From positions 1-64,000 of the IMG/VR virus record IMGVR_UViG_2706795947_000001: 64,000 bases of DNA. One strand, written 5' to 3'. Origin of the DNA: a virus. Taxonomy: Duplodnaviria > Caudoviricetes. Position numbers and translations under genes: made by a program. Position 1 is the stretch's first letter. Every line of letters begins with the position of its first letter. Under the pieces are notes generated by a model. That model had not been told where the DNA came from, made no database searches, and worked only from the letters and a program-made list of their open reading frames with translations. Positions 20,134 through 46,596 of this stretch are shown here, in pieces.

Positions 20134-20207
20134 TGATCCATAGCTCAATTCGGCAGAGCGCCCGACTGTTAATCGGGTGGTTGTAGGTTCAAGTCCTACT
20201 GGGTCAG
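20134..20207 (+). tRNA. tRNA-Asn (GTT), CCA not encoded
   Basis: Acceptor TGATCCA/TGGGTCA, D-arm GCTC/GAGC, anticodon arm CCCGA-CTGTTAA-TCGGG, T-arm GTAGG-TTCAAGT-CCTAC. Confidence 0.93.
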
Positions 20208-20217
20208 CGCAGTACAG

Positions 20218-41923: not shown

Positions 41924-42159
41924 TATTCAGAATCCAGTTGATGGCGAGGCCGGGGGGTATCGTCTCGAACGAGCGGGCCACGGCGGCTGAAGTCGTGGCC
42001 CGCTTCTTCTGTGCACGGCTTCTCGGTACCCTCGATTCGGCCACAGTGGCTGCAATACTTCTTCATAACTGTCACCCCCAATGCCCGGTTAAGGAACGTG
42101 CCAAGGACGAACATGCCTCCAATGATGCAGGCATAGAGTACGACGGTGTACCAGTTCAT
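41920..42159 (-). CDS. Small membrane protein with CxxC
   Basis: N-terminal TM segment and CSHC; follows the Cas4-like gene. Confidence 0.6.
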   Translation of the reverse strand: MNWYTVVLYACIIGGMFVLGTFLNRALGVTVMKKYCSHCGRIEGTEKPCTEEAGHDFSRRGPLVRDDTPRPRHQLDSEY

Positions 42160-42161
42160 TA

Positions 42162-43367
42162 CTACTCCTTGATGAGCCGTTGCACAATTTTTGGCTTGGG
42201 CTCGCCGATGCTCTCCTGGACGGACGATCGTAGCCTGGACTTCTGGGCTGCGTTCAGGGCGTTGCCATTCAAGAGCTTGTCGATTTCACTGTTGTTGATC
42301 TTACCGAGTGAAGCGAAGAGGTTATCCCCGATGATCTCTCGCACCGTCGCTGGATCGTAAGACTTCCGGCGAGACGACTTAAACACGACGTGGTAGTCAT
42401 CCGTATCGTATTCGATCTCGTCGTTCTCCATTGCATCTTCGAGCAGCTTTTCCATCACTTCTTCGATGGCATACTTGATGGCCTTCTGGGCTCCCTCAAG
42501 TTCCATGTACCGCTTCGCCATCTCGTTACGGTCGCCAGCCAGAGCCATGACCCCGCCCGCCTGTACGTTCTTTGTGAGAACGGGGCACGTAGCTTTCACT
42601 ACGCAGAACTGGCATTCCGAATTGAGCGTACGCTTGCCGGGGGCCGGCTCGGCAATGATACGCTCGGCCACCTTGCGAACATACTTCCAAGTGGCGACGT
42701 TGTCGTCGCGGGTGAACTTCACCTCGACGGGATCGTATCGGAGCTGATCGAAGCACACCCAGACCTCGTCTGGGTTGAGCTCGAACCCCAGCTCTTTCGC
42801 GATCTCAGCCTTGGCCAGCATGATGGCCAGCCCGTACAGTCGACCCTGCGCCTTCTGTCGCAGACCCTGTGGCGTGAGATGCTGACGCCAAGTCTTGTAG
42901 TCCACCACGCGGACGATGGTCTTACCGTTCTCTTCGAACATATCGAGGCGGTCGAAGATGAAGGTGTACGGTACCTCTCCGATGGAGGTCTTGATTGTGA
43001 CCCGAATCTTGCGCTCGACCATGAGCACCTGAACCTTGTCGAGGTCGGTGCGCCCGAACCAGCGTTCAAGCATCTCAATTCCGTCGTTGTACAGGTCATC
43101 CTTGGAATCCGGAATGCGCATGAACTGCTTCATGAACTCTTGCTTGAAGTAAGCAACGAGTACATTCCAGTCTAGTTCTTCGCGGGTCTTGCTGATGAAC
43201 ACCTCATCGACAATCCGCTCGAGTGAATCGTGCACGGCGGTGCCCAGCTTAGCTGGGTCCGAGCTACCCCCTGGGCTCGGCGTACGTTCAACCATCTCGG
43301 CGTGGTACCTGAAGGTGCAACCCTCGAACACCTGGATGGAGGATGCCGAGATAGTTCTGAGTTCCAC
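42162..43367 (-). CDS. Cas4/RecB-like PD-(D/E)xK exonuclease
   Basis: SASSIQVFEGC, FDRLD, VVDYKT, QGRLY and CQFCVVKATC motifs. Start GTG 43367 overlaps the WhiB stop (TAGTG). Confidence 0.85.
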   Translation of the reverse strand: MELRTISASSIQVFEGCTFRYHAEMVERTPSPGGSSDPAKLGTAVHDSLERIVDEVFISKTREELDWNVLVAYFKQEFMKQFMRIPDSKDDLYNDGIEMLERWFGRTDLDKVQVLMVERKIRVTIKTSIGEVPYTFIFDRLDMFEENGKTIVRVVDYKTWRQHLTPQGLRQKAQGRLYGLAIMLAKAEIAKELGFELNPDEVWVCFDQLRYDPVEVKFTRDDNVATWKYVRKVAERIIAEPAPGKRTLNSECQFCVVKATCPVLTKNVQAGGVMALAGDRNEMAKRYMELEGAQKAIKYAIEEVMEKLLEDAMENDEIEYDTDDYHVVFKSSRRKSYDPATVREIIGDNLFASLGKINNSEIDKLLNGNALNAAQKSRLRSSVQESIGEPKPKIVQRLIKE

Positions 43368-43711
43368 TACTTGCTTCCCCTCTTCGTGGTAATGCCGCCC
43401 CATATGCCATCGGTCGAACCAGTGCGCTCGCGATAGTCGAGGCACTCGAGCTTAACGGGGCAGCTCATGCAAATCTTCTTCGCGCGATTAGCGCGGGCCG
43501 CTTGTCCCCGGCCAGGGAAGAACGCGTCTGGGTCGTGATACCCTACACAGAGGGCGCGTCGGGTCCACTCTTCGGGGACGAGACTGAAGGAGGCTTCGGG
43601 GGCGTCGGCTGTTCCGGCGTCGAACTCTTCTCCTTCTCCACAGTCGCAGAGCTCTCCGGTTCTGTCGGGTCGAAGAGCGAGGGCTGCGCAGATGCCGTTG
43701 CACCTAAAGGG
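43367..43711 (-). CDS. whiB: WhiB-family transcription factor domain, with no in-frame start (probable -1 frameshift product)
   Basis: Manual translation gives ...EEWTRRALCVGYHDPDAFFPGRGQAARANRAKKICMSCPVKLECLDYRERTGSTDGIWGGITTKRGSK*, with four Cys and GIWGG. Absent from the ORF track. Confidence 0.85.
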   Translation of the reverse strand, partial: PFRCNGICAALALRPDRTGELCDCGEGEEFDAGTADAPEASFSLVPEEWTRRALCVGYHDPDAFFPGRGQAARANRAKKICMSCPVKLECLDYRERTGSTDGIWGGITTKRGSK

Positions 43712-43965
43712 CGGCGCCCCCCGGACATCTCCAGCTCGAATGCGGTCTTGGGTTCCTCGCCGTTGAGCAAGTCATCGGCGTCAGCTTGCGCATCGGCCTT
43801 CGCCTTCTGCTCCGACTGGAATGCCGTCTGCTGGAGGTGCTGCTCGAAGGCGGTCTGTGTCGGGGCCTTGGCTCGGAAGTCCTGGAATCCTTCCTGATCC
43901 ATGCCACCTCGTACCGGGTGCAACTCGTTGGGACCAGCGGGCATTTTGAACTGCGGTTCAGTCAC
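43543..43965 (-). CDS. Hypothetical protein (0-frame partner of WhiB)
   Basis: AAGGAG RBS before GTG 43965; contains C CCT TTA at 43711-43705. Confidence 0.7.
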   Translation of the reverse strand: MTEPQFKMPAGPNELHPVRGGMDQEGFQDFRAKAPTQTAFEQHLQQTAFQSEQKAKADAQADADDLLNGEEPKTAFELEMSGGRRPLGATASAQPSLFDPTEPESSATVEKEKSSTPEQPTPPKPPSVSSPKSGPDAPSV

Positions 43966-44416
43966 TGCGTTCTCCTTGTAGGTGGTGCTAGGCGTGTGCC
44001 GATACGTTAGCATACCGGCGCGGGATCAACCCACGAATGCGGCGCGGCGCTCCACGATGTCCCAGAAATACTCTTGCATGAGGGCGCCGAGCATTACTTG
44101 GGCTCGCTTCTCCGGTGAGGTCCACCAGTGCTTACGATGCTTGCTTCGCTTGAACATTACTTCACCTTTACTTCCAGGCGCTGACTGCTAGGCCGACACA
44201 GATCGCAGCGACCAGCATCAGCACACTCAGCTTGAGAACCACGCCCCACGTCAACCAGTCCATTACAGCCTCCCCATCTTTCTTAGTCGTTCGATCTCGA
44301 ACACGCCGAGCTGTTTCCAGCCCGACATGCGCTTCCAGTGCGAGCCGCAGACGGGGCACTGAACTACAGTACCCTCATTCTCGGTCTCGCGTGCCATGAC
44401 TACCTTGTCACAGCAC

Positions 44417-45139
44417 TCACGCAAAGTCGGCGAACATGTCATCGCCTTCTTCCTCCAGCTTCTTAGCGGACTCGAGGAAGTTGCGCTCGTCTAGCTCAAT
44501 CGCAACGGCATTGCGACCACAGTTGCGAGCGGCTCGCACGAGGCTTCCTGACCCACCGAAGGGGTCCACGAGGAACGCACCCTCCCGGGTGGAATGCTTG
44601 ATAAGAGTCTCCAGCAAAGCCGGTGGCTTCTCGTGCGGATGAATGAGCTCATTCGGCCGGAGCTGCGAGAAATGCAGTACACCGTTGCGCCGCTTGGCGT
44701 AGCGAGGCGCACGACCCTTCTTGAAGAAGATGATGAACTCATGACCCTGTCCCCATGATTCAAGATCGCCCATTCCAGGGCCATCCTTCTCCCATACCAG
44801 GACAGCCTTGCGAACAAAGCCGAACTGCGCACAGAACTCGTCGAGCATGACCAGCCAGTCCGAGAGGACCTGGTACGCAGTGAAGACGTAGAGGTCGCAG
44901 TCGGGCTTGGTCTTGGTGAGCAGGACCGACATGACCTCCTTGAACACCTTGATTGCGATCTCGGGGGACTCGTCATTGGCGATCTTGCGTGCATACTTCT
45001 TGCCGCCCTCCGTGACGGCCATGTTGGAGAGGTTGTCTACCCCAAAGGGTGGGTCAGTGATGATGCAATCCACCGACTCTTCCTTGAAGCGCTGGCACAT
45101 CTCGACGGAATCGCCGTGCCAGATCTGATGAATCTTCAT
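44417..45139 (-). CDS. DNA N6-adenine/N4-cytosine methyltransferase (beta class)
   Basis: ITDPPFG, HPHEKP and DPFGGSGS motifs. Confidence 0.9.
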   Translation of the reverse strand: MKIHQIWHGDSVEMCQRFKEESVDCIITDPPFGVDNLSNMAVTEGGKKYARKIANDESPEIAIKVFKEVMSVLLTKTKPDCDLYVFTAYQVLSDWLVMLDEFCAQFGFVRKAVLVWEKDGPGMGDLESWGQGHEFIIFFKKGRAPRYAKRRNGVLHFSQLRPNELIHPHEKPPALLETLIKHSTREGAFLVDPFGGSGSLVRAARNCGRNAVAIELDERNFLESAKKLEEEGDDMFADFA

Positions 45140-45231
45140 ATCACCTTCTCGTTATAAGTGGTATGTGCCGGCCTTGCCCCTACCGGATCGTGTGTACCCT
45201 CAACTTCCACTTTACACACCGCCCAGCGCGA

Positions 45232-45510
45232 TTAGTCGTCGATCTCGATCTCTTCGTCTTCTTCGATCTCGAGCTCGACGAGCTTGAACTCGGCGACCTG
45301 TCCACCGAGGTAGTCGGTGAGCGACTCGGTGATCTCCGGACCTTCGCTGTCGAGGAAGTCCTCGAGCGTAGCGGTCGCGACCTCCACCTTCTGGTCGGTG
45401 GTCAGCTCGTCGGTGTCCTCGATGTCGTTCTCGGCCATGAGGTCCTCGAGCAGGTCGTCATCGAGGGTGATGGCGCCTTCTTCGACCTTGATCTTCAGGG
45501 TGACAATCAT
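45232..45510 (-). CDS. Highly acidic small protein
   Basis: GGAGG RBS; very D/E-rich. Confidence 0.7.
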   Translation of the reverse strand: MIVTLKIKVEEGAITLDDDLLEDLMAENDIEDTDELTTDQKVEVATATLEDFLDSEGPEITESLTDYLGGQVAEFKLVELEIEEDEEIEIDD

Positions 45511-45511
45511 T

Positions 45512-45739
45512 TCAGTTACCTCCTGTGTTGGTTGCGATCTCGTCAACAGACAAGACCTTTACGGTGACATCGCCACCGAAGTTGTAGATGACATCTTCGA
45601 GCGCCACTTCGCCAGCCTCGAACATGTCGAGGTCGTACTTGACGGCCTCTTCCGGGGTTGTGATCGGAGTCTCCGAGCACTTGTAATGGTCGAGGTCGAT
45701 CTTCGGCTCGTCGATCTCGACAATCAGGTTGATCTTCAC
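45512..45739 (-). CDS. Acidic hypothetical protein
   Basis: GTG 45739 overlaps the lysin B stop; AAGGAG RBS. Confidence 0.6.
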   Translation of the reverse strand: MKINLIVEIDEPKIDLDHYKCSETPITTPEEAVKYDLDMFEAGEVALEDVIYNFGGDVTVKVLSVDEIATNTGGN

Positions 45740-46596
45740 TAGAGCTCCTTGGGTTCCATGTCTGCGAGCTTGCGTGCGATGTCGTTGGCGATCCACTCGG
45801 GGACCGTTACGCCGTCCACCTTGTACTTGCCGTACGAAGTGTGCACGTTGCTCGTTATGTACTTGATCCCCCGGTCAATAGTGCGCTTGAGCTTGGACCT
45901 GAATCGCAGGTAGCCGCCCAAGCCTTTGTATCCGTACTCGTCGCGAATCTTCTTCTGGAAGCTCGCACTGTTGAGAACGGACAGCGAGTACCCAACCCAG
46001 CCGAGCACGTCACCAACCCAGAACTTGTTGGTGAACACGCTGATCTCCTGGAACAGGTCCAGGCCTGGGTCCGAGCTGGCGATGATGTCGCCCGGTGCGC
46101 AGAACTGGAACACCCGCCCGCGTGCCCAGCGCCAGTCTCCGCGCTCCCCGGTGATACCCTGCCCGCCAGGGTCCGGGCCGACGACCTTGTCGTTGTGGTT
46201 GCGGCGCGGGTCCGAGATGCCGTAGTAGGCGACGAGGTTGTTGTCGAGCTCGGGGTCCGGGTGACTGTCCAGAACCCACTCCATGAACACGTCTCCGCCG
46301 ATTGTGGCACCTTGCGAGTATCCCACGATGAAGACTGGGACATTCGGCGGGATGGCCCTGAGCATCTTGCGCAGGTTTGTCACGCCCTTGTGAACCGAGC
46401 TCTCGTAGCTCGCCTTGTCGCCGTATCCCGAGGTGTACGGCACAGACCAGTGCGTGATTGCCCACTTGTGGTCCGTCTCCATGAGGCGACCGAGCGCGGA
46501 GCTGATCAGCTTGGTCATCCCGGTAGGCGGCAATGGGCTCGGAGCGTCATGCGTCTCTGAAGTGCCGGGCACCAGGATCAGATACGCCTCTCTCAT
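45739..46596 (-). CDS. Lysin B-like cutinase / serine esterase
   Basis: VPGTSE, YESSVHKG, VGYSQGA, ISDPRR, GQGITG, GDII and H..Y motifs. Confidence 0.8.
   Translation of the reverse strand: MREAYLILVPGTSETHDAPSPLPPTGMTKLISSALGRLMETDHKWAITHWSVPYTSGYGDKASYESSVHKGVTNLRKMLRAIPPNVPVFIVGYSQGATIGGDVFMEWVLDSHPDPELDNNLVAYYGISDPRRNHNDKVVGPDPGGQGITGERGDWRWARGRVFQFCAPGDIIASSDPGLDLFQEISVFTNKFWVGDVLGWVGYSLSVLNSASFQKKIRDEYGYKGLGGYLRFRSKLKRTIDRGIKYITSNVHTSYGKYKVDGVTVPEWIANDIARKLADMEPKEL

Follow-up and report, generated by a model that had tools for sequence, protein, structure and literature searches.

Most known cases of programmed -1 frameshifting in tailed phages concern tail chaperones, along with some capsid genes. 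In lambda G/GT, as in OrfA/OrfAB of the IS3-family element IS911, the N-terminal part is common to both products and the efficiency of the shift fixes their ratio. In bacterial dnaX, the source of tau and gamma, the -1 shift takes place at A AAA AAG, which is flanked by a Shine-Dalgarno-like element on its 5' side and a hairpin on its 3' side. For the HIV-1 gag-pol site U UUU UUA, one study describes how the route taken in -1 frameshifting is influenced by tRNA-Leu(UAA), which is rare (PMC6547452).

The locus described here belongs to a Gordonia phage of the genus Montyvirus and was analyzed within a stretch of 64,000 nucleotides, called the window. Judged from sequence comparison, a programmed -1 ribosomal frameshift at CCCTTTA very probably joins an upstream gene to a Cys-rich module and a WhiB domain. 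The upstream gene, called the 0-frame gene, and its signals and neighbor are the following.

43971-43977, minus strand: AAGGAGA, 5 nt ahead of GTG 43965, read from the sequence as the Shine-Dalgarno motif of the 0-frame gene.
43543-43965, minus strand: 0-frame gene of 140 aa, from GTG 43965 to TAG 43545-43543.
42162-43367, minus strand: Cas4-family exonuclease gene with its GTG start at 43367-43365, as annotated in GenBank relatives.

An in-frame ATG at 44013, upstream of GTG 43965, is also present in the 0 frame. The 140-aa protein has a conserved N-terminal part, in which a DFR motif and three TAF(Q/E) repeats occur, and its tail past the heptamer is rich in Pro, Ser, Thr and Glu. No Pfam family was found for this protein, even at E values up to 1, and a search of the ESM Atlas with its N-terminal 86 residues gave no usable match. 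Its match in PHROG is group 6890; the 'endonuclease' label of that group is treated as unsupported. The locus sits in the early region with a DNA methylase and the Cas4-family exonuclease as neighbors; these neighbors and the WhiB product rule out a tail assembly chaperone frameshift of the G/GT type. A promoter and terminator scan of 42000-46000 returned nothing exceeding the expectation from shuffled sequence.

The features of the second frame, which is -1 relative to the 0-frame gene, are as follows.

43705-43711, minus strand: C CCT TTA, the slippery heptamer at which the -1 shift is proposed to occur, read from the sequence and conserved.
43367-43711, minus strand: -1 reading from the heptamer, 114 codons, ending at TAG 43369-43367.
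43631-43702, minus strand: Cys-rich module in the -1 frame, with CNGIC at 43702-43688 and CDCGEG at 43648-43631.
43382-43567, minus strand: WhiB domain with its four Cys and GIWGG turn, encoded in the -1 frame and matched by PF02467 of Pfam.
43367-43468, minus strand: ORF of 33 aa from ATG 43468, which includes the third and fourth WhiB Cys and lacks the first two.

The initial annotation had reported a complete WhiB domain in a frame with no start codon ahead of it. Its sequence statements were rechecked on the minus strand and its coordinates are all correct. The WhiB frame is open from TGA 43774-43772 to TAG 43369-43367, and the first ATG, GTG or TTG is ATG 43468, inside the WhiB domain. 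The overlap it had seen between the WhiB stop and the Cas4-like start is also there, with one base common to TAG 43369-43367 and GTG 43367-43365. PF02467 covers residues 49-110 of the -1 reading with an E value of 2.4e-16 and 60.5 bits, where the Pfam cut-off is 23.6 bits, and the WhiB structure 8dy7_H in the PDB matches the same reading with an E value of 2e-13. Both the C-Xn-C-X2-C-X5-C pattern and the G-[VI]-W-G-G turn of WhiB proteins are present. Across 15 sequences C55, C81, C84, C90, G102, W104 and G106 are invariant, and I103 nearly so. GenBank relatives annotate the 33-aa ORF as 'WhiB family transcription factor' or 'hypothetical protein', or annotate nothing. A search for homologous proteins restricted to near lengths gave no match.

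The additional Cys residues that had been pointed out ahead of the WhiB domain are indeed conserved across several phage genera. In the Cys module, C4, G6, C8, C22, C24, E26 and G27 are invariant in 14-15 sequences, and five further lineages, metagenomic or from isolates, have a looser form of the motif. The module belongs to no known family, and the ESM Atlas held no usable match for it. AlphaFold2 models of the 114-aa reading reached a pLDDT of 34.9 alone and 47.2 with a 14-row alignment; this low confidence makes them uninformative on the Cys module.

C CCT TTA is in register, its first C being the third base of a 0-frame codon (phase 2), and a -1 slip on it leads into the WhiB frame and its 114-codon reading, just as had been proposed. 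The two products are the 140-aa protein and a predicted fusion of 199 aa, made of 87 residues from the 0 frame and 112 from the -1 frame. CCCTTTA occurs once on both strands of the 64-kb window, against about 1.9 occurrences expected by chance, so the motif alone is unremarkable; its significance comes from its conservation in relatives. TTA is the rarest sense codon of this phage, with 8 of 14544 codons in 38 large ORFs.

An indel that hides a single ORF was the first concern of the initial annotation. Over 43540-43800, the contigs of four runs (368-738x) have neither insertions nor deletions. At least 80% of the 751-bp query is covered in 67 of 86 matching phage records, and at least 80% of the 114-aa -1 reading in 95 of 106 records. 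Sequencing error is excluded; neither the four deep assemblies nor more than 100 records have an indel. In a search of 1.84 billion protein representatives, neither a single-ORF form nor the Cys module was present among the top matches, and none of the six top HMMER matches extending upstream of the WhiB domain carries the Cys module.

Homologous loci keep an in-register X XXY YYZ heptamer in 19 of 19 GenBank loci, picked to span identity bands, and in 13 of 13 IMG/VR loci, namely those whose match begins at query residue 22 or before and thus reaches the Cys module. Nine IMG/VR loci (L033, L043, L044, L051, L053, L071, L072, L074 and L094), all ordinary WhiB genes that have a start of their own and lack the Cys module, do not enter these counts. 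In the GenBank loci, the heptamer lies directly ahead of the -1-frame motif R-(L-V/I)-C-x-G-x-C. The heptamer reads CCCTTTA in five genera (Montyvirus, Woesvirus, Tinduovirus, Getseptimavirus and Demosthenesvirus) and CCCAAAA, at the same place, in GMA3, Gmala1, ReqiDocB7, Perlina and Mbo2. The arrangement is common to phages of Gordonia, Tsukamurella and Rhodococcus, in several genera. A pattern scan added five further lineages with a heptamer, a WhiB domain in the -1 frame and an upstream 0-frame ORF; they are no test of heptamer presence, because the search pattern contained the heptamer.

The initial annotation had named homologues with their own start codon as evidence against a frameshift. 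No conserved alternative start was found, and the slippery site is kept. From the opening stop to the second Cys motif, the -1 frame holds no ATG, GTG or TTG in any of the 19 GenBank loci. Ahead of the first WhiB Cys, the 14 CCCTTTA loci have no start, with the exception of Katyusha and Niagara, where a GTG lies a short distance upstream of this Cys. A stand-alone WhiB could also arise from an internal ATG in the GMA3-type and Rhodococcus phages. The slip is, in all likelihood, the only route to the full WhiB domain in the window phage, and to the Cys module in all relatives.

The lack of a standard start also means that any reading without recoding needs a non-standard one. If ribosomes did initiate at such a codon in the -1 frame, the G-rich, Shine-Dalgarno-like tract 5 nt ahead of the heptamer would be its ribosome-binding site. 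The position of the -1-frame stops bears on this directly. The -1 frame opens one codon before the heptamer in GMA3 and L032, and in Gmala1 and L116 the stop directly abuts it (0 codons before), which pins the shift site. In the latter two, the stop precedes CCC AAA, the only candidate starts are CCC, AAA and AGA, and the conserved residues begin two codons further on. No near-cognate codon is conserved, AGG being found in some phages and AGA in Woes, Berries and Katyusha. Non-canonical initiation would also leave two canonical in-register X XXY YYZ heptamers unexplained, and it is considered highly improbable.

The frameshift reading is in line with the distribution of stops. Upstream of the heptamer, 24 sequences contain 83 -1-frame stops in 1932 codons; from the heptamer to the first WhiB Cys, the same 24 sequences contain 0 in 1675 codons. 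The linker varies from 13 to 50 residues in these sequences and is in frame every time. The genera that keep the -1 frame open with its invariant residues share only 40-65% identity.

Variable sites were assigned to codon positions in nine Monty/Woes sequences. Upstream, 60 of 95 variable sites fall at 0-frame third positions, and in the WhiB part 27 of 40 fall at -1-frame third positions. Inside the overlap, the frame-specific signal among close relatives is weak: their variable sites are spread 15/12/21 over the three -1-frame codon positions, and the ratio of synonymous to non-synonymous columns is 12/36 for the -1 frame, as against 6/42 for the 0 frame. Nor are the frames separated by pairwise identity across the overlap, TIN3 for example having 33/53 in the 0 frame and 30/53 in the -1 frame. 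Over the ten codons from the heptamer, there are fewer distinct residues per column in the -1 frame than in the 0 frame. Codons of the Cys/Gly motifs (CxGxC and the CGEG core) vary synonymously, as TGC/TGT and GGA/GGC/GGT, and the same changes alter the overlapping 0-frame residue (A/V, E/A/V).

The weak constraint on the overlap among close relatives is what would be expected if the WhiB frame were a decaying remnant, with only the 140-aa protein made and perhaps the 33-aa stub from ATG 43468; GenBank annotators, for their part, call the stub only, or nothing. This explanation is considered highly improbable. Against it, the -1 frame is open across genera, with invariant Cys, Gly and Glu and invariant WhiB residues, and the 33-aa stub is without two of the four cluster-binding Cys.

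Two elements near the heptamer were considered as stimulators of a -1 frameshift.

43717-43722, minus strand: G6 run (Gly-Gly codons), a Shine-Dalgarno-like tract and candidate stimulator or pause site, 5 nt upstream of the heptamer.
43678-43671 / 43658-43651, minus strand: stem GCTCTTCG / CGGAGAGC with a 12-nt loop, from the predicted fold.

The stem had been put forward in the initial annotation as a possible 3' element. It does appear in the predicted fold, beginning 26 nt past the heptamer, and a role as stimulator found no support. In pseudoknot-free predictions, folding of the 75 nt that follow the heptamer does not exceed that of shuffled sequences (z +0.88, with 161 of 200 shuffles as good), and the same holds in 13 lineages, with z from -1.84 to +1.04. 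A hairpin in the Montyvirus consensus starts 12 nt downstream of the heptamer and shows weak covariation, with 2 covarying pairs of 35. On the 5' side, the G6 tract forms a predicted duplex of -9.1 kcal/mol with the anti-Shine-Dalgarno 8-mer, in the best 1% of nearby 9-mers. In 14 of 18 lineages, a Shine-Dalgarno-like tract 3-14 nt ahead of the heptamer ranks in the best 2% of local 9-mers, a post hoc count over related lineages. The tract also encodes a conserved Gly-Gly, and the G6 run itself is not conserved, being GGTGGC in TIN phages and GGAGGC in Katyusha.

The same fusion would result if transcriptional slippage or RNA editing at C3T3 or C3A4 changed the frame, or if the ribosome made another move, such as +2 or a hop; the product being the same, comparative data cannot tell these routes apart. 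At known sites of transcriptional slippage, the A or T runs are longer. Here the G6 run varies among phages, and the conserved feature is the exact X XXY YYZ pattern, in a register fit for tRNA re-pairing. These routes are taken together as improbable.

In the proposed mechanism, ribosomes would initiate at GTG 43965 in the 0 frame, and most would be expected to finish the 140-aa protein at TAG 43543. Some would slip back one base on C CCU UUA (43711-43705) and go on in the -1 frame. The slip would be ribosomal, and the rare UUA codon and the upstream Shine-Dalgarno-like tract may promote pausing and slipping. The 199-aa fusion would carry the common N-terminal 87 residues, the Cys module (CxGxC ... 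CxCGEG) and the WhiB Fe-S domain. The efficiency of the slip would set the ratio of short to long product, and hence the dose of the WhiB regulator, and the fusion may act on host sigma-A RNA polymerase, like other WhiB proteins. A further, speculative and rather unlikely reading is that the locus is a regulatory sensor rather than a fixed-ratio device. Because the slip on CCCTTTA would depend on decoding the rarest codon, UUA, the supply of host tRNA-Leu(UAA) would set the amount of WhiB fusion, and the Cys module would be a second metal or Fe-S center. Such control would resemble the bldA-type control of development in Streptomyces. If true, this would define a new class of two-center WhiB regulators that exist as trans-frame proteins only.

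A literature search on WhiB and phage frameshifting, including Gordonia, found no description of such a locus, which supplementary tables might list. In the text searched, a survey of phage WhiB genes does not use the word frameshift (PMC8612146), a 2016 recoding review does not mention WhiB (PMC5009743), and the paper on PRFect mentions neither WhiB nor Gordonia (PMC10885494). The frameshift appears to be the sole route to a transcription factor in phages of several genera. It brings to light a conserved Cys-rich module that is invisible to gene callers, and many GenBank records contain 33-aa entries, named 'WhiB family transcription factor', that are fragments. With a non-pathogenic host and simple phage genetics, the locus would be a tractable system for how recoding sets the dose of a regulator, and the natural swap of CCCTTTA and CCCAAAA at one site offers a ready-made comparative experiment.

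Compared with stand-alone phage WhiB proteins, for example those of mycobacteriophages, and with cellular WhiB/WhiB1 (8dy7_H, 6ono_A), the fusion has the same Pfam domain, the four Cys and G-I-W-G-G; the stand-alone genes differ from the window locus in having their own start codons and no CxGxC...CxCGEG module. Like dnaX, the locus combines a proposed -1 slip on an in-register X XXY YYZ, a candidate upstream Shine-Dalgarno-like tract and products with a common N-terminus. In dnaX, however, translation in the shifted frame ends almost immediately and yields the shorter product, whereas the shift here would add 112 residues and two domains; nor is a downstream hairpin supported here, unlike in dnaX. 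HIV-1 gag-pol also has UUA, rare in its system, as the A-site codon, and in both cases two slip routes are conceivable, here with a junction residue of Leu if the slip follows Leu decoding and Phe if it occurs on an empty A site. The P-site codon is CCU rather than the UUU of HIV-1, and the present system is bacterial. As in IS911 OrfA/OrfAB, of the IS3 family, and lambda G/GT, a short 0-frame product would be accompanied by a longer trans-frame fusion, the downstream ORF is without its own start, and shift efficiency would fix the product ratio. Unlike in those systems, the product is neither a transposase nor a tail chaperone, and the part added by the shift would be a WhiB domain.

The locus was re-read on the minus strand, and all coordinates of the initial annotation, which had proposed a hidden WhiB regulator made by -1 ribosomal frameshifting, proved right, as did its length of 199 aa for the fusion product. 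The window is from a Gordonia phage (genus Montyvirus); a 751-bp query taken from it matches 86 phage records, with 99.6% identity to the phages Ekhein and GourdThymes. The elements of the locus are the following:

43965 to 43545-43543, minus strand: upstream gene (0 frame), GTG to TAG, 140 aa, with AAGGAGA five bases before the GTG
43774-43772 to 43369-43367, minus strand: open stretch of the -1 frame, TGA to TAG, one base behind the 0 frame
43711-43705, minus strand: heptamer C CCT TTA, confirmed to be in register with the 0-frame gene
43468, minus strand: ATG, the first ATG, GTG or TTG of the -1 frame in an ORF scan

Both the WhiB frame lacking a start upstream of its domain and the slippery heptamer are real. 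Since the first start of the -1 frame is ATG 43468, a standard ORF scan reports only a 33-aa ORF. Read from the CCC at 43711, the -1 frame has 114 codons, of which residues 49-110 form the WhiB domain (Pfam PF02467, E 2.4e-16, 60.5 bits against a cut-off of 23.6); the nearest solved chains are WhiB 8dy7_H (E 2e-13) and WhiB1 6ono_A. The noted overlap with a Cas4-like start also holds, the WhiB-frame stop sharing one base with the GTG of the Cas4-family exonuclease as annotated in relatives. An in-frame ATG at 44013 (-), 48 nt upstream of GTG 43965, would yield 156 aa; the BirksAndSocks annotation begins at the equivalent ATG, and most relatives use the GTG after AAGGAGA. Further upstream, on the same strand, is a DNA methylase gene (44417-45139 (-)). 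The order methylase, small genes, frameshift gene and Cas4-family exonuclease is shared by phages from Montyvirus to Demosthenesvirus and by the Rhodococcus phages.

A sequencing error that splits a single ORF would give the same arrangement and is ruled out by two results. A tblastn search recovered the -1 reading from 106 phage records at E <= 1e-11, with at least 80% coverage in 95 of them, and over 43540-43800 the contigs of four runs (368-738x) differ by 3-4 substitutions apiece, with no indel.

To compare relatives, 19 GenBank/RefSeq loci were chosen to span the tblastn identity bands from 100% down to about 40%. All 19 have a WhiB domain in the -1 frame of the upstream gene, and all 19 have an in-register X XXY YYZ heptamer right before a -1-frame R-C-x-G-x-C or R-L-[VI]-C-x-G-x-C. 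CCCTTTA occurs in Montyvirus, Woesvirus, Tinduovirus (Tsukamurella phages), Getseptimavirus and Demosthenesvirus; in GMA3, Gmala1, ReqiDocB7, Perlina and Mbo2, CCCAAAA takes its place. The use of either of two canonical slippery heptamers at one site and in one register, within diverged DNA, is the signature that would be expected of a selected shift site. An IMG/VR profile scan, from which 80 loci were kept, gave the heptamer in 13/13 loci whose match starts no later than query residue 22 (L020-L032, several of them the same isolates); nine other inspected loci hold ordinary WhiB genes, which have a start codon of their own and lack the Cys module, the -1-frame CxGxC and CxCGEG motifs ahead of the domain. 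Pattern scans added five more lineages (L108, L113, L115, L116 and L117), each with an upstream 0-frame ORF and a -1-frame WhiB domain, which widen the family only and are no test of heptamer presence, as the scan pattern contains it. In these five the second motif is looser, with a CG[EQL]G core retained and the first Cys shifted. The conserved heptamer and -1 frame support the initial reading, and a WhiB fusion made by -1 ribosomal frameshifting is very probable.

The position of the shift can be mapped from the -1 frame, which opens 0 to 64 codons upstream of the heptamer depending on lineage. In GMA3 and L032 it opens one codon before the heptamer; in Gmala1 and L116 the distance is 0 codons, the stop codon abutting CCC directly. 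Because of this stop and a conserved Arg two codons after CCC, the frame change must fall on the heptamer. Between the opening stop and the second Cys motif, none of the 19 loci has an ATG, GTG or TTG in the -1 frame. An internal ATG or GTG just ahead of the first WhiB Cys occurs in GMA3 (L006), Gmala1 (L016), L014, L015, L017, L005 and L013; such genera could make a stand-alone WhiB besides the fusion, so these phages may make three products from the locus.

Constraint on the two frames was examined in 24 sequences. The -1 frame contains 83 stops among the 1932 codons upstream of the heptamer in which the 0 frame is open, and 0 among the 1675 codons that run from the heptamer to the first Cys of WhiB; these counts are not independent trials because the sequences are related. 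The contrast is clearest in low-G+C members, such as L116 (6 stops in 40 codons upstream versus 0 in 83 downstream). Between the two Cys motifs lies a linker of 13 to 50 residues that is in frame every time. Module positions C4, G6, C8, C22, C24, E26 and G27 are invariant in 14-15 aligned sequences; between sequences, codons of the Cys/Gly motifs are exchanged for synonyms (TGC/TGT, GGA/GGC/GGT), and the overlapping 0-frame residue changes with them. Among nine Monty/Woes sequences, 60/95 variable sites upstream of the heptamer fall at 0-frame third positions, and 27/40 in the WhiB part at -1-frame third positions. Over the overlap, close relatives give a weak signal, with 15/12/21 variable sites per -1-frame codon position and synonymous/non-synonymous columns of 12/36 in the -1 frame versus 6/42 in the 0 frame; the two frames are also not told apart by their pairwise identity across the overlap. 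In Montyvirus and Woesvirus, about 85 nt from the heptamer on (43600-43711 (-); alignment columns 30-115) are more conserved in nucleotide sequence than the flanks, as expected under two-frame or RNA-element constraint.

The proposed 3' stem did not hold up as a stimulator. It is present in the predicted fold but begins 26 nt after the heptamer, and the predicted fold of the 75-nt stretch behind the heptamer does not surpass that of shuffled sequences, either in the window (z +0.88) or in 12 other lineages (z -1.84 to +1.04); 2/35 pairs covary in the Montyvirus consensus fold. TTA is the rarest sense codon in the large ORFs of the phage (8/14544 codons), and the window has a single tRNA gene, tRNA-Asn (GTT) at 20134-20208 (+), and none for tRNA-Leu(UAA). 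With UUA decoded slowly in the A site, the P-site tRNA-Pro would slip more readily from CCU to CCC. On the U UUU UUA of HIV-1, supply of tRNA-Leu(UAA) is reported to alter the slipping route (PMC6547452). The heptamer is preceded, at a distance of 3-14 nt, by a G-rich tract with complementarity to the tail of 16S rRNA; in a post hoc test it was within the best 2% of nearby 9-mers in 14/18 lineages, and it also encodes a conserved Gly-Gly. The rare UUA and this tract are candidate stimulators, the latter recalling the upstream tract of dnaX.

Annotation of the locus is inconsistent across the cluster. Among the 19 loci, Ekhein, Diabla and Berries list the WhiB frame as a "WhiB family transcription factor" of 33 aa; Monty, Woes and BirksAndSocks list a hypothetical protein of that length; Katyusha, Niagara, ReqiDocB7, Perlina, GMA3, Gmala1 and Mbo2 list a WhiB of 64-72 aa that begins at an internal start; and TIN2, TIN3, Amore2, GTE7, PokyPuppy and Chelms leave the frame unannotated. 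No annotation row at the locus flags a joined CDS. The 33-aa entry (43367-43468 (-); relatives L001, L002 and L007) occurs in many deposited genomes and holds only two of the four cluster-binding Cys. In the Chelms RefSeq record the Cas4 gene is extended upstream into the WhiB frame.

Ribosomes that do not slip would make the 140-aa protein, and those that slip a 199-aa protein with the same N-terminus followed by the Cys module and WhiB. The shared N-terminal part matches no Pfam family; most lineages have in it a short conserved stretch centred on D-F-R. The "endonuclease" label of PHROG/RefSeq for the 0-frame protein is without Pfam support. In the window this part (43708-43965 (-)) carries three TAF(Q/E) repeats (TAFEQH, TAFQSE, TAFELE) and a conserved F-x-D-F-R motif; the segment with the repeats is missing from CCCAAAA-type phages, which retain a D-F-R-like motif. 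The 0-frame tail after the heptamer is rich in Pro/Ser/Thr/Glu, ends at different points relative to -1-frame features between genera, and looks unselected or overprinted. For the Cys module, searches returned no family and no usable look-alike. HMMER searching of 1.84 billion representatives gave 17708 WhiB matches, none at E <= 1e-30; the top matches among the best 150 cover the WhiB domain only, and six reaching further upstream lack the module, so no single-ORF version occurs among the matches listed. As a member of its family, the WhiB part probably binds an Fe-S cluster and the sigma-A of the host.

A search directed at main texts found no description of a frameshift-made phage WhiB. The locus is a variation on the known -1 frameshift mechanism, undescribed as far as the literature searched shows. 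In lambda G/GT and IS3 OrfA/OrfAB, slip frequency sets the ratio of two products; by analogy, slip frequency at the heptamer most likely fixes the ratio of the 140-aa to the 199-aa protein.
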